A stretch of 64,000 nucleotides of DNA from Deltaproteobacteria bacterium (GCA_021817825.1 JAKAFS010000005.1:2679-66678), one strand, 5' to 3'; shown: positions 3,407 through 12,379, counted from the first letter of the stretch. A program made the numbers and translations. Notes: generated by a model from the letters alone, not told the origin.

Positions 3407-4111
3407 ATGCTCCTGGTAAAACAGTTTCGTTATGGCGCCGATAATCTCGGCTATCTCCTCTACGGCAGAAAAAGCGCCCTGGCCGTCGATGGCGGGGCGG
3501 CCGAGGCGATTCTCGCATTTACGGAGGCGCATCGTCTTTGCCTCCAGTATGTGGTCAACACCCATCGGCACGCCGATCATACCAGCGGCAACGCCACCCT
3601 TCTGGGCCGGTCAAAAGCGCAATTTCTTTCGGGGCAGGATCTGCTCGATCCTGGGGCGGAACTCGTTTTTGCCGGAGAACCTATCCGGATCATCCCGACG
3701 CCGGGTCATACGGAAGACTCGCTTTGTTTTTACACCGGCCGGGCGCTGGTCACGGGGGACACCCTTTTCAACGGAACGATCGGAAATTGCTTTTCCGGCG
3801 ATCTGGAGGCCTATTACCGGTCCATCCGAATGTTGCTGACCCTTCCCGAGGAGACCGTGGTTTACGCCGGCCATGACTATGTCCGGGATTCCATGGCCTT
3901 TGCGAAGAGTATCGAACCGGAAAACGGGTTCATCAACGATTTCGTCAAGCGCTACGATCCCGAGCATGTCCGTTCCACACTGGCGGATGAGAAGAGGATA
4001 AACCCCTACTTCCGTTTCAACGAACCGGGGATCGTGAGGCTTTTGGCAAGACGGGGCCTTCCCCGGGAAACCGAATGGGAGCGCTGGCATTCGCTCATGA
4101 GCATCGAATAA
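3407..4111 (+). CDS. gloB: MBL-fold hydrolase, hydroxyacylglutathione hydrolase (glyoxalase II)-like
   Basis: It has the THRHADHTSGN metal motif and a length of about 234 aa. It sits next to a glyoxalase I-like gene, and an AAGGAG RBS precedes the start. Confidence 0.7.
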   Translation: MLLVKQFRYGADNLGYLLYGRKSALAVDGGAAEAILAFTEAHRLCLQYVVNTHRHADHTSGNATLLGRSKAQFLSGQDLLDPGAELVFAGEPIRIIPTPGHTEDSLCFYTGRALVTGDTLFNGTIGNCFSGDLEAYYRSIRMLLTLPEETVVYAGHDYVRDSMAFAKSIEPENGFINDFVKRYDPEHVRSTLADEKRINPYFRFNEPGIVRLLARRGLPRETEWERWHSLMSIE

Positions 4112-4147
4112 TCGCATATAAACGCATTCAATAGCTGGGGGATTGAA

Positions 4148-4519
4148 ATGAAATTCAGGTTTGCGCACAACAACTTCAACGTCTTGGATCTGGAAAAAAG
4201 CGTCCGCTTTTATCAAGAGGCCCTACAGTTGAAGGAGGCCCGGAGAGTCGCTGCTGCCGACGGAAGTTTCGTGCTTGTCTTTTTGACCGATGGGGAAACG
4301 GGACACAAACTCGAGCTCACCTGGCTGAAAGACCGGAAAGAGCCTTACCAACTGGGGGACAACGAGTTTCACCTGGCACTGACCGTGGATGATTTCGCCG
4401 CAGCCCATGCCCATCATGAGAAGATGGGTTGCATCTGCTACGAAAACGAGAAGATGGGAATCTACTTCATCCACGATCCCGACGATTATTGGATCGAGAT
4501 CATCCCGGCCAGAAGCTAA
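4148..4519 (+). CDS. gloA: VOC-family protein, lactoylglutathione lyase (glyoxalase I)-like
   Basis: This is a 123-aa VOC fold (FAHNNFNVLDLEKSVRFY...ELTW...FHLALTVDD...IEIIP). It is paired with the glyoxalase II-like gene. Confidence 0.7.
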   Translation: MKFRFAHNNFNVLDLEKSVRFYQEALQLKEARRVAAADGSFVLVFLTDGETGHKLELTWLKDRKEPYQLGDNEFHLALTVDDFAAAHAHHEKMGCICYENEKMGIYFIHDPDDYWIEIIPARS

Positions 4520-5816: not shown

Positions 5817-6809
5817 TTAAAACAGGATCAGCAGATGATAGATCAAGGCCGAGATCAGGGCCGACAAGGGAATCGTCAGCACCCAGGCCCAGACAATGGT
5901 TCCTGCCACTCCCCAATGCACCGCCGTCAGACGGTGGGTGGCGCCGACGCCGACGATCGCGCCGGTAATGGTATGGGTCGTGCTGACGGGAATGCCGCCG
6001 AGAGAAGCCCCGATGATGGCCAGGGCGGCGGCCGTCTCTGCAGAGAATCCTCCCATCGGCCGGAGCTTGGTGATCTTCGTCCCCATGGTCTTGACGATTC
6101 GCCAGCCGCCCGCCATCGTTCCCAGGCCGATGACCGTGTAGCAGGTGATTTCGGTCCAGGCCGGGATGTGAAAGACGGGACCCAGCATTCCCCGACTGTA
6201 GAGGACCAGCGCTATGATTCCCATGGTCTTCTGGGCATCGTTCATCCCGTGTCCCATGCTGAAGATGGCGGCGGAAAGCAGCTGGAGCTTCCGGAAGACG
6301 CGATCCGCCCGATAGACCGTCGAGTGGCGGCAGAGGTTCGTCACAAGGGTCATCAGGCCTAATCCCAAGGCCATCCCGATTGCCGGCGAAAGGACGATGA
6401 AGAGCACCGTCTTTTCGATTCCCGAAAGGACCAGCACGTCCAGTCCTCCCTTCACGATGCCGACACCGATCAGACCGCCGATCAACGCATGGGAGGAACT
6501 GCTCGGAAGACCCAGGTACCAGGTGATCAGATTCCAGGCGATCGCCCCCCCGAGGGCCGAGAAGATGACCGCATCGGTGATGATATCGATATGGATGATC
6601 CCCGTTCCGATCGTCTTGGCGACCGGAACGCCGACGAGGAAAAAGGCGACGAAATTGAAGAAAGCCGCCCAGAGGACTGCTTGGCCGGGGGTGAGGACGC
6701 GGGTGGAAACGATGGTCGAGATGGCGTTCGCGGCGTCGTGGAAGCCGTTGATAAAGTCGAATACCAGTGCCGTCAGGACGAGGAAGATGACCGGGGCGAG
6801 TTCAGCCAT
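5817..6809 (-). CDS. Inorganic phosphate transporter, PiT family
   Basis: The 330-aa membrane protein has duplicated GFHDAANAI and GMNDAQK motifs. Its start overlaps the end of the DUF47 gene. Confidence 0.9.
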   Translation of the reverse strand: MAELAPVIFLVLTALVFDFINGFHDAANAISTIVSTRVLTPGQAVLWAAFFNFVAFFLVGVPVAKTIGTGIIHIDIITDAVIFSALGGAIAWNLITWYLGLPSSSSHALIGGLIGVGIVKGGLDVLVLSGIEKTVLFIVLSPAIGMALGLGLMTLVTNLCRHSTVYRADRVFRKLQLLSAAIFSMGHGMNDAQKTMGIIALVLYSRGMLGPVFHIPAWTEITCYTVIGLGTMAGGWRIVKTMGTKITKLRPMGGFSAETAAALAIIGASLGGIPVSTTHTITGAIVGVGATHRLTAVHWGVAGTIVWAWVLTIPLSALISALIYHLLILF

Positions 6810-7422
6810 TTTTCAGGACGATCCCCTCCACGATGTTGGAGACGTCTTCACAGGTATCGATCGCCTCTTCGATCCGTTCGTGGATTTCTTTCCACTTGAT
6901 CAGTTCCTTGACGTCCGGCTCGTGTTCAAACAGCCGCGCCATCGTCGTCCGGAGGATCACATCGCCGGCGTTTTCCAGGGTGTGGATCTCGATGCAGGTT
7001 TGGAGCATCAGCGGGGCGTTTTTCATATCTCTCAGGGCGTGAATGAGCGTTTGGACCTTCCCGATGCTCTCGTTCAGGACCCGCGCCTGCTCGATGAGCG
7101 CCTCCGCCGGTTCCTTCACCCCGTAGAGGAGAAGGCGGGAGGCGGCCGCTTCGGTCATGTCGAGGATACTGTCCATCTTGTTGATAAGGCTGTAGATGTC
7201 TTCGCGGTCGAGAGGCGTGAGGAAAGTCGAGTGCATCTTTGCACAGGTCCGGTGAGTGATGATGTCCGCCTCGTGTTCTATCTCCTTGATGCGGTCGATC
7301 TTCGCGGCGTCGTAGGCGCCGCCTTCCACCAGCTCCAGGAAGAGCGCTCCCCCCGCCTTGATCCGGGCCGCCAGCTCTTCGAAGAAATCGAAGAACTTTT
7401 CTTCTTTCGGAAAGAATCTCAT
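6802..7422 (-). CDS. DUF47-family (PhoU-like) protein, partner of the PiT transporter
   Basis: The N-terminus MRFFPKEEKFFDFFEELA is typical of DUF47/YkaA. It forms the conserved gene pair with PiT. Confidence 0.85.
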   Translation of the reverse strand: MRFFPKEEKFFDFFEELAARIKAGGALFLELVEGGAYDAAKIDRIKEIEHEADIITHRTCAKMHSTFLTPLDREDIYSLINKMDSILDMTEAAASRLLLYGVKEPAEALIEQARVLNESIGKVQTLIHALRDMKNAPLMLQTCIEIHTLENAGDVILRTTMARLFEHEPDVKELIKWKEIHERIEEAIDTCEDVSNIVEGIVLKNG

Positions 7423-7646: not shown

Positions 7647-8171
7647 TTATTTCGGATCGTTGCCGGTGGTCTTTACGAAAATGACTTTCCCGTCGCCGGG
7701 GCCGTAAAAATCCCGGAGAAAGGCCTCCTCACGGTAGCCGCAGGAACGGTAGAAGGCGTGGGTGGGCTCATATTGGGGACGGGAAGAGGTGTCCGCATAG
7801 ATCCTCCGGGCGCCGCGCGCCGCCATGATCCGCTCCGATTCGATCAGGAGCCGCTTGCCGATTCCTTTGCCCTGCGCTTCCGGATCTACGGCGATCCAGT
7901 AAAGATCGTAACTGTGGGTGGAGCCGGGGATCGGGCCGAAACAGGAATAGCCCAGGAGCCGATCCTTTGCTTCGGCAAGGAGGAAGAAATAACCGCTGGA
8001 TTCGCCCTTCAGGAGCCGTTCGTCCACGAGTTCCACGGCGATCCCCGCCTCTTCTTCCGAAAAGAATCCCGTTGCCCGCACGAGACGGCCGACCGCTTCG
8101 CAGTCCGCCGATCTCACCTGCTGTCGATGAAGGATGGGTTCTTCCATATCTCCCTTTTGGCAATCACGCAT
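7647..8171 (-). CDS. GNAT-family N-acetyltransferase
   Basis: The acetyl-CoA binding region WIAVDPEAQGKGIGKRLL is present. It is the last gene of the KamA/ATP-grasp operon and overlaps the preceding gene by 8 nt. An alternative start is at 8147. Confidence 0.8.
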   Translation of the reverse strand: MRDCQKGDMEEPILHRQQVRSADCEAVGRLVRATGFFSEEEAGIAVELVDERLLKGESSGYFFLLAEAKDRLLGYSCFGPIPGSTHSYDLYWIAVDPEAQGKGIGKRLLIESERIMAARGARRIYADTSSRPQYEPTHAFYRSCGYREEAFLRDFYGPGDGKVIFVKTTGNDPK

Positions 8172-8511
8172 GGGGGATGCCTCCCCGGAACATGAAGTAC
8201 GCCGCGCCGACGAGGCAGCAGCCTGCCCAGAGGTAATCCAGCTTCAGCGGCTGCCGCATGTAGAAATAGGCAAAGGCCGCGAAAACGATCATCGTGATGA
8301 TTTCCTGGATCACCTTGAGTTGGGCCAGATTGAAGTAGTGGATGCCGATCCGGTTCGCCGGCACCTGCAAGAGGTATTCGAAAAAAGCGATCCCCCAACT
8401 CAGCAGGATAATGAGAATCAGCGGTTTCCCGTTCATGTTCTTGAGGTGGCCGTACCAGGCAAAAGTCATGAACAGATTTGATAGTACCAACAGTATCAAT
8501 GGTTTTAGCAC
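8164..8511 (-). CDS. DMT-superfamily small membrane protein (DUF486-like)
   Basis: 115 aa, with four predicted TM helices and the FMTFAWYGHLK motif characteristic of DUF486. Confidence 0.75.
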   Translation of the reverse strand: MLKPLILLVLSNLFMTFAWYGHLKNMNGKPLILIILLSWGIAFFEYLLQVPANRIGIHYFNLAQLKVIQEIITMIVFAAFAYFYMRQPLKLDYLWAGCCLVGAAYFMFRGGIPHA

Positions 8512-8538
8512 TTGTTTCGGTTTTAACTCCTTTGCTGT

Positions 8539-9534
8539 TTACTTCCGGCTCCCGGGACCGGGGATATCCTGCATGATCCGCCGCAGCGTTTCAGGGAACT
8601 CCAGGCCGGCTTCGCGGGCGGCCGCCTGAAAACCGGCATCCGGCGAGATGCAGGGGTTGGCGTTGACTTCCAGGATCCAGGGGTGTCCCTCTTTGTCGAT
8701 GCGGAAGTCGACGCGGGCGTAACCCCGCAAAGCGAAGATCTGCCAACACTGAAGGGCAAGCGTCTTTAGATGCGCGAGCAGTGGCGCGTCCGTCTCGGGA
8801 AAACGGAACGACCGCGGCGTGTGGTTGAACTCGAAGGAATTCTCGTCCCACTTGGAGCGGTAGCCGACGACGCGGACTTTACCCGGCGGATAGGCGTCGA
8901 AACGGATCTCGGCCGGGGGCAGGACCTCCGGCCCCCTTTCGCCGGCCAGAACCGAAAGGTTGAATTCCCGGCCGTCGATGAAGGCTTCGGCCAGACATGT
9001 GCCGCCCAGAGAGGCGCGCCGGCTCTCCATTTCCGCGAGGAGCCTTTCTCCGTCCGCTGCCGGAAGCACCGAGTCCTCGTCGAGACCGACCGAGGCGTGT
9101 TCCCAGGCCGACTTGACCAGCCAGGGGCCGGAAATCGGCACATCTTCAGGCCTGTCTGCCGGGGTGAACCAGGGAGGGGTGGGAAGTCCGGCCGCGGCAA
9201 GCCACTTCTTGGCGAGGATCTTGTTGGAGGTGAGCACCATGGCCTCCGTGCCTGCCCCCGTGTAGGGGATTCCCAGGGCGTCCAGCAGGGCCGGGGCGAC
9301 ATGAATGAGGCTGCCCTTCCCGGAGAGGGTTTCCACCAGGTTGAATGCGCAATCGGGATGAAGCGTCGCGAGCGTTCGCGCCGCTTTTTCCAGGTTCAGG
9401 GGAAGAGGGAGGATGAATGTTTCGTGACCCAGGATCTCAAGGCCGCGGGAGACCGCTTCCGCCTGCACCAGGGCGTCCTGTTCGTCCTTGCTGGCATTGA
9501 CGGGCACTTCCCCGTGGATGACGACGACTTTCAT
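8539..9534 (-). CDS. ATP-grasp ligase, D-alanine--D-alanine ligase family (paralogue B)
   Basis: 331 aa. ATP-grasp signatures are present (GIPYTG, REFNLSVL, ARVDFRIDKEGHPWILEVNANP). Confidence 0.8.
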   Translation of the reverse strand: MKVVVIHGEVPVNASKDEQDALVQAEAVSRGLEILGHETFILPLPLNLEKAARTLATLHPDCAFNLVETLSGKGSLIHVAPALLDALGIPYTGAGTEAMVLTSNKILAKKWLAAAGLPTPPWFTPADRPEDVPISGPWLVKSAWEHASVGLDEDSVLPAADGERLLAEMESRRASLGGTCLAEAFIDGREFNLSVLAGERGPEVLPPAEIRFDAYPPGKVRVVGYRSKWDENSFEFNHTPRSFRFPETDAPLLAHLKTLALQCWQIFALRGYARVDFRIDKEGHPWILEVNANPCISPDAGFQAAAREAGLEFPETLRRIMQDIPGPGSRK

Positions 9535-9556
9535 GATCGGTTGCCCTGGATGCCCT

Positions 9557-10540
9557 TCATGAGAGGCCCTGGACGCGTTGGAGTGCGGAACGCATGATCC
9601 TGTCGATCAGTTCCCGGTAGGGCATCCCGGCGAGAGCGCAGAGGATCGGCAAATCGGAATGGTCCGGCCGGATGCCGGCCAGGGGATTGACTTCGATAAA
9701 ATTCGGTATCCCTGCGGCATCGGCGCGCAGGTCGATCCGGCCGCCGTCGCGACAGCCGAGGCCCCGCCAGGCGGCAAGCGCGATTGCTTCCGCCTCTTTC
9801 GCCATGGCGTCCGTGGCGAGGCGGTACTCGATGCGCCCGTGCCAGTCTTCCTTGTTGAGGTAGGAGTACCCCCCTTTTTCGGCCTTCTCGGTCAGATGCA
9901 CCTCCAGCACCCCCGGGGCGAATGCCGTATCGCCGGTCCCGATGATCCCGACGGTGAATTCGCGTCCCGGCAGGTAGGTCTCGACCAGAACGGGCTGGCG
10001 GAAGGTTTCGAGGAGCAAAAGGCAGACGCGCTCCAGTTCCGCCCGGTCGGCGATTTGCGAAGCGGCGGTGACCCCCTTCCCCGTCCCTTCGGCCACCGGC
10101 TTGGCAAAGAGCGGATAGGGAAGATCGACGGCGGCGATCTGGTCTGCGGACTCGATAACGGCAAAGGCGGGCGTCGGAATGCCGAGGTCGCGGATCACCC
10201 GTTTGGTCAGCCCTTTATGGAGGGTGAGCGCCAGGAGCAGCGGATCGGAAAAGGTATAGGGGATATCGTAGGCTTCCAGAAGCGCCGGCACCTGCGCCTC
10301 GCGGCCGAACCCCTTTAGCCCTTCGGCGATGTTGAAGACCAGGTCCCAGCGGTCGCCTTTGACGAGCCGGGCGGTAAGCGCGCGGATGTGACCGACCCGG
10401 TCCGTCTCGTAACCGAGCTCACGCAGGGCGCTCTCGATCGCCTCGATCGTCACCGGATGATCGAATTCCGCCGTTTCCTCTTCACCGTACCCTTCGGCGA
10501 GGTAATCGTCCCGAAGATCGTAGGTCATGCCGATTTTCAC
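9557..10540 (-). CDS. ATP-grasp ligase, D-alanine--D-alanine ligase family (paralogue A)
   Basis: 327 aa. ATP-grasp signatures are present (DIPYTFSD, LPGREFTVGIIG, GRIDLRADAAGIPNFIEVNPLAG). Confidence 0.8.
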   Translation of the reverse strand: MKIGMTYDLRDDYLAEGYGEEETAEFDHPVTIEAIESALRELGYETDRVGHIRALTARLVKGDRWDLVFNIAEGLKGFGREAQVPALLEAYDIPYTFSDPLLLALTLHKGLTKRVIRDLGIPTPAFAVIESADQIAAVDLPYPLFAKPVAEGTGKGVTAASQIADRAELERVCLLLLETFRQPVLVETYLPGREFTVGIIGTGDTAFAPGVLEVHLTEKAEKGGYSYLNKEDWHGRIEYRLATDAMAKEAEAIALAAWRGLGCRDGGRIDLRADAAGIPNFIEVNPLAGIRPDHSDLPILCALAGMPYRELIDRIMRSALQRVQGLS

Positions 10541-10613
10541 AGGAATCCTTTAAAAAGCGGGGACAACGCCCGACTCGCCGAGGTCAAGAAATCGGGCGCC
10601 ATCCCTTGGGCAA

Positions 10614-11921
10614 TCAATGAATGACGCTTTCCCTGGCGGGAGCGTCGGGATAACGAAAAACCCGTCCCTCGTAATTCCGGAGCAACAGGTCGCCGTCTTC
10701 CCGTCCTTCGGCGTATTCGGGCAACAGCGGGATTTTCCCGCCGCCGCCCGGCGCGTCGATGACGTAGGTTGGGACCGCATAGCCCGTGGTGAATCCTCTC
10801 AACCCGCGGATGATTTCCAGTCCCTTGGCGACGGGGGTCCGAAAATGGGAAGAGCCGGGGATCGGATCGCACTGGTAGAGATAGTAAGGCTTGACGCGGA
10901 TCATGAGCAGGCCCTGGACGAGACGGCGCATGGTTTCCACATCGTCGTTGATGCCGGCCAGGAGGACCGTCTGGCTTCCCAGGGGAATTCCGGCGTCGGC
11001 CAGCCGCGTGCAAGCCCGGGCCGTTTCCGCCGTCAACTCGTCCGGATGGGCCGCATGGATGCTGATCCAAAGCGGATGGTAGCGCTTGAGCATCTTCACC
11101 AGGGCCGGGGTGATCCGCTGGGGAAGAACGATCGGCACTTTCGTCCCGATCCGGATCAGCTGTACATGGGGAATCTGCCTCAGACGCAGCAGCAGCCATT
11201 CGAGCTGTTCGTCGGCCAGGGTGAGCGGATCTCCGCCGGAAAGGAGGACATCCCTCACCTCGGGATGCGCTGCGATGTAGGCAAGGCCCCGTTCCCACTG
11301 ATCGGTGTTCAGGCAATGGTTTCCCTGATGGCCGACCATCCGCGAGCGGGTGCAGTACCGGCAATAGGTCGAACAGTTCCCCGTCACCAGAAACAAGAGA
11401 CGATCGGGATAACGGTGGACGATTCCCGGAACCGGGCTGTCCTGTTCCTCATGGAGAGGGTCGTCCGCCTCGCCGCTGCTGCGGAATTGCTCGTGGACCG
11501 TCGGCACGACGGTCCGGCGCAACGCCTGCTTGGGATTCCAAGGGTCGAGGAGACTGGCATAGTAGGGGGTGATGGCCAAAGGAAGAGAGCTGGCCTGACC
11601 GCTCATGGCGTGGCGCTCATCTTCCGAAAGACGGAGCATCGCTCCCAGCGTCTCCACATCGCGGATGCGGTTGCGAAGCTGCCAGTGCCAATCCTGCCAT
11701 TCCTTGGGTGTGGCGTTCGGAAAGAAACGTTTCCGGAAGGCCCGTGACCGGCTGTCATTCAAGGGGACAGGCTTGAATACCGACCGGGTGGTCGGAACCG
11801 CGACGGGTGTGCAAAGGGTACTCAGGGACGTATTGAAATCATGGTGTTGGGTTGGACCGACAATGCCGGTCAATCTACCTGGAGGCTCCGCCTCCTCCAC
11901 AAAAAGCGTTTCGCTTTCCAT
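10614..11921 (-). CDS. kamA: KamA-family radical SAM enzyme, lysine 2,3-aminomutase-like
   Basis: It has the CSTYCRYCTRS radical-SAM cluster motif, the W.DWHWQLRNRI N-terminal motif, and the YQCD and DAPGGGGK motifs. The start was moved to MESETLF (11921), which follows a GGAGGA RBS. Confidence 0.9.
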   Translation of the reverse strand: MESETLFVEEAEPPGRLTGIVGPTQHHDFNTSLSTLCTPVAVPTTRSVFKPVPLNDSRSRAFRKRFFPNATPKEWQDWHWQLRNRIRDVETLGAMLRLSEDERHAMSGQASSLPLAITPYYASLLDPWNPKQALRRTVVPTVHEQFRSSGEADDPLHEEQDSPVPGIVHRYPDRLLFLVTGNCSTYCRYCTRSRMVGHQGNHCLNTDQWERGLAYIAAHPEVRDVLLSGGDPLTLADEQLEWLLLRLRQIPHVQLIRIGTKVPIVLPQRITPALVKMLKRYHPLWISIHAAHPDELTAETARACTRLADAGIPLGSQTVLLAGINDDVETMRRLVQGLLMIRVKPYYLYQCDPIPGSSHFRTPVAKGLEIIRGLRGFTTGYAVPTYVIDAPGGGGKIPLLPEYAEGREDGDLLLRNYEGRVFRYPDAPARESVIH

Positions 11922-12133
11922 CCTTATCCTTCCTCCTTTATCCATAAACGTCAAAAAGAGAGGACGACGCCTCTCTTTTCATAGGAACCCTGCTTTTGTT
12001 GTGACCCCTGTATTTTGTATGCGAATGTCACGCTATCCTCAATTTGCATGGATTTGTCCGTCGCTTTACTCTTTTTGAAATAGGCTGTCAACCAATAATT
12101 TCGCATATCCGTCCTAAGCCGTAACCTTGAAAT

Positions 12134-12379
12134 TTACTTTACAATATAGCGCGTAATGGTGATGCTCATCCGGCCTTTTTCGTCATTGTCCAAAGTGCCC
12201 GTCGCCTCCACCTGTCGCTGAAGACAAGCGAGCAGTTCCTTTCCTTTCCGATTCTTCGCGATTCGGTATTCCTTTTCATCGGCCGTCGCCAGGGCCGCGG
12301 CGACCACTTCCTGGTCCTGCCAGTCCGTCGGGATGACGATTCCCGTCAGTGTGGCGGTCCGTGATTTCTTGAGAGCCAT
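12134..12379 (-). CDS. Hypothetical small protein (81 aa)
   Basis: The ORF has coding-like GC3 and no competing ORF. I recognise no family. Confidence 0.5.
   Translation of the reverse strand: MALKKSRTATLTGIVIPTDWQDQEVVAAALATADEKEYRIAKNRKGKELLACLQRQVEATGTLDNDEKGRMSITITRYIVK

Follow-up and report, generated by a model that had tools for sequence, protein, structure and literature searches.

A conserved cassette of a lysine 2,3-aminomutase, two Ddl-derived ATP-grasp ligases and a GNAT acetyltransferase as a candidate pathway to an N-acetylated beta-lysine amide

A 64,000-nucleotide (nt) stretch of DNA from a Deltaproteobacteria bacterium (GCA_021817825.1, JAKAFS010000005.1:2679-66678), referred to here as the window, carries a compact locus with genes for a KamA-family lysine 2,3-aminomutase (KamA), two ATP-grasp ligases derived from D-alanine-D-alanine ligase (Ddl) and designated AG1 and AG2, a small DMT_6/DUF486 membrane protein, and a GNAT N-acetyltransferase (GNAT). 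In this study, we found that four of these genes, KamA, AG1, AG2 and GNAT, are kept together as a cassette. The arrangement is far beyond chance, as dozens of distantly related genomes show the same order of genes. We propose, with a probability of roughly 55%, that the locus encodes a self-contained and widespread four-enzyme pathway to a small, peptide-like amide that contains beta-lysine and is N-acetylated.

Conservation was scanned in one genome per GTDB species, with AG1, the signature gene of the cassette, as the anchor. The 120 best database matches of AG1 were all at least 79% identical. At least 374 relatives were found and the best 80 loci were mapped; in these, AG1 was 57-83% identical across phyla. 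Linkage was counted by mapping the window proteins onto the AG1 loci, with loci that had enough flanking sequence as the denominators. KamA was a neighbour of AG1 in 68 of 71 loci; for AG2 the count was 61 of 66, for GNAT it was 45 of 54, and the complete set of four occurred in 41 of 50. The genes nearly always followed the order KamA-AG1-AG2-GNAT, and the median gaps between them were 41-68 nt. DMT_6 was encoded within the cluster in only 5 of the 80 other species loci (L006, L037, L042, L044 and L053). All five were of the Syntrophales/Smithella type, and the gene was always between AG2 and GNAT. The conserved unit therefore consists of four genes, and DMT_6 is a lineage-specific insert and a possible transporter. 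The original prediction had described a five-gene operon at this locus; the four-gene unit proved to be widely kept, whereas DMT_6 did not hold as a fifth member.

According to their record titles, the best 80 loci came from about 13 phyla, labelled Desulfobacterota, Bacteroidota, Planctomycetota, Acidobacteriota, Myxococcota, Fibrobacterota, Spirochaetota, Ignavibacteria, KSB1, WOR-3, Sumerlaeota, Bacillota and others. The titles named Syntrophales, Smithella, Desulfobacterales, Desulfocapsaceae, Bacteroidales, Rikenellaceae, Cytophagia, Chitinophaga and Melioribacter. Further titles were Planctomycetaceae, Thermoguttaceae, Kuenenia, Thermoanaerobaculia, Acidobacteria, Myxococcota, Polyangiaceae, Fibrobacterota, Spirochaetaceae, KSB1, WOR-3, Sumerlaeota, UBP1 and Bacillota. 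Most of the loci were from metagenome-assembled genomes (MAGs); L010 and L076, for instance, are MAG contigs that carry the labels Syntrophus aciditrophicus and Melioribacter roseus.

Gene fusions were searched with AG1 against 1.84 billion representatives of clusters at 50% identity. This search gave 797 proteins at E <= 1e-30, and the best 150 of them were domain-mapped. Among these 150, at least 13 cluster representatives were AG1-AG2 fusions of 640-730 amino acids (aa), one protein was a KamA-AG1 fusion (P0374, 63% and 56% identical to the window proteins), and one joined a CxxCxxCC domain to AG1. In the AG1-AG2 fusion P0361, the C-terminal half was 47% identical to the window AG2. Locus L040 encoded a protein of 531 aa in which AG2 and GNAT are fused. 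The KamA-AG1, AG1-AG2 and AG2-GNAT fusions mirror the gene order of the cassette, which argues for successive action of the four enzymes on a single metabolite.

KamA matched the lysine 2,3-aminomutase of Clostridium subterminale (PDB 2A5H) with an E-value of 1.9e-135 and 51% identity. The CxxxCxxC, QCD and DAPGGGGK motifs, which had already been recognised in the original prediction, aligned to C125/C129/C132, D293 and D330-K337 of 2A5H. C125, C129, C132, R134, D293, D330 and K337 were invariant in 68 of 68 sequences (67 orthologues from related loci and the window protein). In 2A5H, Arg134 binds the lysine carboxylate, and Asp293 and Asp330 bind the epsilon-ammonium group. K337 is the position of the lysine that forms the Schiff base with pyridoxal 5'-phosphate (PLP) in the PGGGGK loop. 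Since all lysine-specific residues are kept throughout the clade, KamA most likely acts on free L-lysine.

Model scores and residues were used to place the KamA clade. On the curated NCBIfam models, the window KamA scored best for AblA (TIGR03820, 485.2 bits; cut-off 525.4), followed by glutamate 2,3-aminomutase (TIGR04368, 431; cut-off 650), arginine aminomutase (389; cut-off 600) and EpmB (TIGR03821, 258.6; cut-off 369.3). Each score was below its cut-off, and the generic KamA model was the only one passed. On the question of the aminomutase type, which had been raised in advance, the enzyme was of the lysine type: it was below the cut-offs for EpmB and the glutamate enzyme, and both lysine-binding Asp residues were kept. 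In the clade, position 268 was D, N, S or E rather than Cys, and the tail beyond residue 367 of 2A5H had a median length of 9 aa. The clade therefore represents a short form of the enzyme and lacks the C-terminal Zn/oligomerisation domain of the clostridial protein. The Zn site of the clostridial enzyme, formed by Cys268 and C-terminal cysteines, is absent from it. At its N-terminus, the window KamA has a further stretch of about 70 aa that is specific to the lineage.

Database entries for AG1 and AG2 currently carry the name D-alanine-D-alanine ligase. The two proteins are 30% identical to each other and match Ddl structures at about 1e-19 to 1e-21 (AG1 about 1e-21). On the best Ddl model, PRK01372, AG1 scored 139 bits and AG2 112 bits, against a cut-off of 243. 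The AlphaFold (AF2) model of AG1, with a predicted local distance difference test (pLDDT) score of 74, superposed on Ddl structures with TM-scores of 0.72-0.78 at 24-27% identity. A Foldseek search with this model returned Ddl structures only and gave no further functional clue. Residues were then compared in an alignment of E. coli DdlB, a reference verified as identical to 1IOV, with 81 AG1 and 63 AG2 sequences. The residues for ATP/Mg binding and the acyl-phosphate, K97, K144, E180, E187, K215, R255, D257, E270 and N272 (DdlB numbering), were invariant in both families. Because this set is complete, AG1 and AG2 are probably active ATP-dependent carboxylate-amine ligases, with specificities other than that of Ddl.

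The D-alanine pocket of Ddl, consisting of the Glu15/Ser150/Tyr216 triad with Ser281 and Leu282, was intact in neither family. In AG1, Thr150 and Asp282 (S150T and L282D) were fixed in 81 of 81 sequences, and Glu15 and Ser281 were kept. Position 216 had no Tyr; it was E in 69 sequences, K in 7, A in 4 and Q in 1. Replacement of Tyr216 by Glu was considered as a specificity determinant of AG1 and was dropped because the position varies. In AG2, Trp216, Gly282 and Cys276 (Y216W, L282G and G276C) were fixed in 63 of 63 sequences, position 150 was Ala in 55 and Gly in 8, and position 281 was Ala, Ser or Gly. Glu68 was lost in AG2, where residue 68 was non-acidic and was Leu in 47 of the 63. As judged from these fixed, family-specific replacements of the D-alanine-pocket residues, AG1 and AG2 are not cell-wall Ddl paralogues. 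The original prediction had named ordinary Ddl activity as the outcome that would speak against it, and both the model scores and the pocket residues went the other way.

The pocket residues also allow the substrates to be narrowed. The invariant Asp282 in the acceptor pocket of AG1 would suit a cationic acceptor such as beta-lysine. Taken together, the residues predict two substrates for AG1: a donor that resembles an amino acid, as Glu15 is kept, and an acceptor that is cationic and bears a carboxylate, as Ser281 is kept and Asp282 is gained. The pocket of AG2 is predicted to be wider and more hydrophobic (Trp216, Gly282, Ala150), and would be suited to a larger intermediate. Proteins of about 600-720 aa with two ATP-grasp modules in tandem form a paralogous family of their own (P0385, P0392, P0396, P0410, P0413 and others). 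Their C-terminal module was 33-44% identical to AG1, and a motif seen by eye, ECNPLPGL-P-(W/F)SDL, suggests that the Ser-Asp pocket motif is kept in this family.

Among the named NCBIfam models, GNAT scored best for RimI (45 bits; cut-off 86). It reached 17.8 bits on the AblB model (TIGR03827; cut-off 205.1), and by this score it is not an AblB orthologue. The only close solved relative of GNAT was 2R7H (E 1e-39), an uncharacterised structural-genomics entry from a Desulfovibrio strain, named 'putative D-alanine N-acetyltransferase'; in the literature, 2R7H was cited solely as a structural neighbour of the TacT toxin. Many stand-alone GNAT orthologues are labelled 'D-alanine-D-alanine ligase' in the JGI annotation. 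Homology supports the transfer of an acyl group, presumably acetyl, to an amine by GNAT. NCBIfam had no specific model for AG1, AG2, GNAT or DMT_6.

In the pathway proposed here, KamA would use S-adenosylmethionine (SAM), a [4Fe-4S] cluster and PLP to turn free L-lysine into beta-lysine (3,6-diaminohexanoate), and this step is well supported by the conserved residues. AG1, probably the first ligase to act on beta-lysine, would form an acyl-phosphate and create an amide bond between beta-lysine and another small molecule. This partner could be an amino acid, a further beta-lysine or a different amine or acid. AG1 keeps the equivalents of Glu15 and Ser281, the residues that in Ddl hold an amino-acid ammonium and carboxylate. 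AG2 would then add a second amide bond to the AG1 product, and GNAT would acetylate a remaining free amine, possibly the epsilon-amine. The order from beta-lysine through AG1 and AG2 to GNAT was adopted because of the fusions and the gene order. Beta-lysine has two amines and one carboxylate, and two ligations and one acetylation could cap all three.

In Syntrophales, DMT_6 might, speculatively, carry the product or a precursor across the membrane. The earlier idea that DUF486/DMT_6 is an exporter thus applies at most to this lineage, given its presence in the cluster in 5 of 80 loci. As most loci have no dedicated exporter, an intracellular product seems more likely than an exported one. A cytoplasmic solute or protectant is the default guess for its role, and polycation or other roles were also entertained. 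The small-molecule accessory genes found near the cassette (acetylpolyamine-amidohydrolase-like, MFS/efflux and DMT_6) were counted in favour of a small-molecule product.

An accessory protein of 580-590 aa was encoded inside the cassette in several phyla. Pfam analysis of two members showed a weak GNAT-like N-terminus and a histone-deacetylase-family domain, and the closest solved relatives were acetylpolyamine amidohydrolases (APAH; E 1e-65 to 1e-68). The gene was confirmed by Pfam/PDB or ORF (open reading frame) mapping in five loci (L019 8999-10774, L029 8956-10779, L045 8768-10774, L072 9364-11247 and L062 5259-7001), and its cluster has a sixth member. It follows AG2, except in L062, where it is between KamA and AG1. 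This insert suggests a built-in deacetylation or recycling step. By analogy with its relatives, it might also hint at an acetyl group on a long-chain amine such as the epsilon-amine.

Two loci had two-gene KamA-AG1 versions without AG2 or GNAT (L071 4248-10227 and L018 5790-14626). One such version, from a spirochaete, was flanked by MFS transporters, and another, from a Bacillota MAG, was followed by MarR and HlyD-type efflux genes. These efflux neighbours hint at an exported, dipeptide-like product in those lineages.

Several points weigh against a small acetylated beta-lysine amide as the product. The ligation partners, the bond positions, the acetylated amine and the step order are all inferred. 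The variable position 216 of AG1 means that the argument from an acidic pocket holds in part only. No target gene adjoins the cassette, yet a macromolecular substrate is still compatible with the data. One or more cassette members were missing from 9 of the 50 fully evaluable loci, and two-gene versions occur, so the product may differ between lineages. As most loci are from MAGs, the taxonomic labels and the single fusion ORFs (P0374 and L040) could hold errors. According to the record titles, most carriers came from freshwater, groundwater, soil, peat or digester samples rather than saline ones, which weakens the analogy with an osmolyte.

The same enzymes could instead make an oligomer, a polymer or a polyamine conjugate. 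The ligases would either link beta-lysine units to one another, as happens in the side chain of streptothricin, or conjugate beta-lysine with a polyamine, and acetylation and deacetylation would tune the charge of the polycation. In the Ddl reaction the two substrates are identical, a pair of sister ligases could add one unit after the other, and the invariant Asp in the AG1 acceptor pocket would fit such a role. The kinship of the recurrent accessory enzyme with APAH points in the same direction. However, the pocket of AG2 is more hydrophobic than that of AG1, which argues against repeated addition of an identical cationic unit, and polyamine-synthesis genes do not recur in the cassette. We consider this alternative doubtful.

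Modification of a macromolecule was also considered. The ligases would attach the beta-lysine made by KamA to a translation factor, a ribosomal protein or some other protein, in the manner of RimK or EpmA, and a RimI-like GNAT would acetylate it. EpmB, a paralogue of KamA, supplies beta-lysine for elongation factor P (EF-P), and ATP-grasp enzymes such as RimK modify proteins. RimI was the best named model for GNAT, at 45 bits and below the cut-off. The unusually high conservation of AG1 across phyla (57-83%) is also what an enzyme recognising a conserved macromolecule would show. Against this, the ligases are of the Ddl type, whose characterised members are small-molecule enzymes, and they scored just 20-23 bits on the rimK models. 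KamA scored 259 bits on the EpmB model against a cut-off of 369, and the accessory genes encode small-molecule enzymes and transporters (APAH-like, MFS and DMT).

The gene neighbourhood bears on the same question. When the ORFs of all loci were clustered and 73 same-strand neighbours were scanned with Pfam, no family recurred more than twice. No conserved target protein, precursor peptide, regulator or exporter was found around the cassette by the ORF clustering or among these neighbours, and neither efp, epmA nor ribosomal-gene linkage was found among the 73; a target, efp or ribosomal gene thus never recurs beside the cassette. A peptide of the ribosomally synthesised and post-translationally modified graspetide/microviridin type was also looked for, and no conserved precursor-peptide gene was found beside the ligases, where ORFs below 70 aa were not systematically searched. 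These results make a macromolecular target unlikely. A specific form of it, an ATP-grasp route for beta-lysylation of a conserved macromolecule in phyla without EpmA, in which AG1 would ligate and AG2 and GNAT would extend and cap, is very unlikely. Sigma-54 activators near nine loci look coincidental.

It is likewise quite improbable that the cassette serves cell-envelope chemistry, with the Ddl-like ligases adding beta-lysine or another residue to a peptidoglycan precursor or an envelope component. The homology of AG1 and AG2 to Ddl would fit this idea, as would a Mur-ligase gene that was the immediate neighbour in 2 of the 73 cases. Some peptidoglycan cross-bridges are built by ATP-grasp ligases (PMC2922099), which also counts for it. 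On the other side, the D-alanine-pocket residues are lost, there is no mur/dcw context in the window or in most loci, and the fusions of AG1 to KamA and of AG2 to GNAT suggest a line of soluble metabolic enzymes. The carriers are from diderm phyla, and diderm peptidoglycan normally has no cross-bridges.

A plain AblAB pathway with bystander Ddl genes, which the AblA model as the best match of KamA (485 bits), a GNAT in the same operon and the AblAB pairs reported in Desulfobacterota relatives (e.g. Pelobacter carbinolicus) and in a syntrophic propionate oxidiser (PMC3543383, PMC11201294) might suggest, is hardly credible, as it is contradicted by the linkage (ligases beside KamA in more than 90% of loci), by the fusions of ligases to KamA and GNAT, by the model scores (GNAT 17.8 bits against the AblB cut-off of 205, KamA below the AblA cut-off of 525) and by ligases that are not Ddl.

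In the full-text literature, no description of a KamA, ATP-grasp and GNAT set was found, in line with the original prediction that no characterised pathway has this gene set. The literature that was found dealt with canonical AblAB (PMC3543383, PMC11201294), lysine fermentation and unrelated clusters such as that for negamycin. The Desulfovibrio LysX regulon was also considered and had no link to the cassette.

AblA and AblB form the N-epsilon-acetyl-beta-lysine pathway of methanogens and some bacteria. Like this pair, the cassette has a lysine 2,3-aminomutase and a GNAT in one operon. Unlike the pair, it has two ATP-grasp ligases between the two genes and sometimes fused to them, a GNAT with a very low AblB score, a KamA below the cut-off and without the C-terminal domain, and carriers that are mostly non-halophilic. 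The original prediction had drawn on the AblA/AblB pair: AblA is the best model for KamA, GNAT is not an AblB orthologue (17.8 against 205 bits), and the osmolyte role implied by the analogy finds no support here. With Ddl and Van-type ligases, AG1 and AG2 have in common the ATP-grasp fold of the Ddl type and a complete set of catalytic residues. They differ from these in their 24-27% identity, their scores below the cut-offs, and the replacement of the Ser150/Tyr216 pair and Leu282, and their genomic context is KamA and GNAT rather than mur/dcw.

N-acetylglutaminylglutamine amide (NAGGN) is made by Ngg and AsnO, and Ngg is a GNAT/ATP-grasp fusion. The cassette follows a similar logic, in which a GNAT and an ATP-grasp ligase would make an N-acetylated small peptide from free amino acids without a ribosome or a non-ribosomal peptide synthetase, and the AG2-GNAT fusion at L040 resembles Ngg. 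However, the ATP-grasp subfamily is another one, the domain order is reversed, the cassette has no amidotransferase, and it has two ligases and a radical-SAM aminomutase that would supply a beta-amino acid. On the AblA and AblB scores below cut-off, the replaced Ddl pocket and the lack of an amidotransferase, the cassette is a member of neither the AblAB nor the NAGGN-type pathways.

In the EpmB/EpmA system, as proposed for the cassette, a KamA-family enzyme feeds beta-lysine to a dedicated ligase. EpmB also lacks the long C-terminal domain of the clostridial lysine 2,3-aminomutase, as does the cassette KamA. The cassette ligases, however, are ATP-grasp enzymes and not aminoacyl-tRNA-synthetase paralogues, and the EpmB model gave 259 bits against 369. 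ATP-grasp L-amino-acid ligases and carnosine synthase form di- or oligopeptides with ATP, which may include a beta-amino acid (beta-alanyl-histidine). The proposed ATP-dependent formation of a peptide from free amino acids is similar to this. These enzymes belong to subfamilies unrelated to those of the cassette and are not known to be coupled to an aminomutase or a GNAT, and we know of no system of this kind with such a phylogenetic spread.

If the proposed pathway is correct, hundreds of mostly anaerobic species in over a dozen phyla make a beta-lysine-derived metabolite that has not yet been described. The carriers include syntrophs, sulfate reducers, Bacteroidota, Planctomycetota (with an anammox genus) and Acidobacteriota. 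Within the ATP-grasp superfamily, the Ddl branch would gain two new substrate specificities. The pathway would also represent a third physiological use of the KamA family, beside osmolyte synthesis or lysine fermentation and EF-P modification, and would correct a systematic misannotation, in which AG1, AG2 and some GNATs are named D-alanine-D-alanine ligase.

The features of the locus in the window are given in Table 1.

Table 1. Coordinates of the cassette genes and the operon leader in the window
Feature	Position	Strand	Details
KamA-family radical SAM/PLP lysine 2,3-aminomutase	10614..11921	-	435 aa; Pfam Radical_SAM + LAM_C
AG1, Ddl-derived ATP-grasp ligase	9557..10540	-	327 aa; Dala_Dala_lig_C PF07478, E 2e-22
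AG2, second Ddl-derived ATP-grasp ligase	8539..9534	-	331 aa; Dala_Dala_lig_C PF07478, E 1e-17
DMT_6/DUF486 small membrane protein	8164..8511	-	115 aa; PF04342, E 1.3e-45
GNAT N-acetyltransferase	7647..8147	-	166 aa; Acetyltransf_1 PF00583, E 7e-17
Operon 5' leader	11922..12091	-	TTGACA box, conserved blocks, terminator-like hairpin

The ORF listing gave five co-directional minus-strand ORFs at 10614-11954, 9557-10540, 8539-9534, 8164-8511 and 7647-8171, spaced by 73, 22 and 27 nt and then overlapping by 8 nt. Both the coordinates and the Pfam content agreed with the five tightly packed, co-directional genes first described at 7647-11954. The KamA start is most likely the ATG at 11921, with AAAGGAGG upstream, and this start matches the 435-aa product P0001 in the public record of the contig, a Deltaproteobacteria/Syntrophales MAG. 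The TTG at 11954 is disfavoured because it sits within a terminator-like hairpin. For GNAT, the most likely start is the ATG at 8147, with the Shine-Dalgarno sequence AAGGGAG 5 nt upstream, in agreement with the 166-aa public product; the protein would be 174 aa if the ATG at 8171 were taken instead. The start at 8147 leaves a 16-nt gap after the DMT_6 gene. Thus, of the spacings first given, 73, 22 and 27 nt stand, but the 8-nt overlap holds for the ORFs as listed and not for the likely GNAT start. Terminator-like matches within the five-gene block were no commoner than in shuffled sequence.

The leader upstream of KamA has a conserved TTGACA box at 12091-12086 and two conserved sequence blocks. 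Its hairpin, a 10-bp stem with a T-run at 11979-11953, lies just ahead of the ribosome-binding site and ends some 30 nt short of the start codon of KamA. The box, the blocks and the hairpin are kept in Syntrophales relatives; the hairpin persists despite sequence differences, and some of the changes in its stem are compensatory. The overall fold of the leader was not unusually stable (z 0.2), and Rfam gave no lysine riboswitch or other family in the window or the leader. The hairpin may be a transcription attenuator or another kind of cis-regulator. A 51-aa ORF called in the leader of L001 was rejected as coding, since its start codon is not kept in relatives.

Directly upstream of KamA on the same strand, orf81 (12134-12379, minus) encodes a conserved protein of about 80 aa with the motif TLTGIVIPxDW...ATADEKEY and a faint match to DUF5818. 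It was present in about 10 loci (L002-L008, L011, L012, L016 and L025), some of them outside Syntrophales. A role of orf81 as a precursor, a carrier or a core part of the cassette was rejected, because it occurs in about 10 loci only and a promoter-like box and a hairpin lie between it and KamA.

On the other side, a pair of genes for DUF47 (PhoU-like) and a PitA/PHO4 phosphate transporter (5817-7422, minus) begins 224 nt downstream of GNAT and is probably a separate operon. The pair follows GNAT in synteny across Syntrophales/Smithella genomes (L004, L022, L034, L038, L042, L046 and L053). Like the Fpg and GDP-fucose genes upstream, the DUF47-PitA pair reflects no more than synteny within Syntrophales. 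No defence-system model of PADLOC was matched by any of six proteins. On the plus strand at 3407-4519, a hydroxyacylglutathione-hydrolase-like metallo-beta-lactamase gene adjoins a glyoxalase-family gene; the two resemble a methylglyoxal detoxification pair and appear to be unrelated to the cassette.

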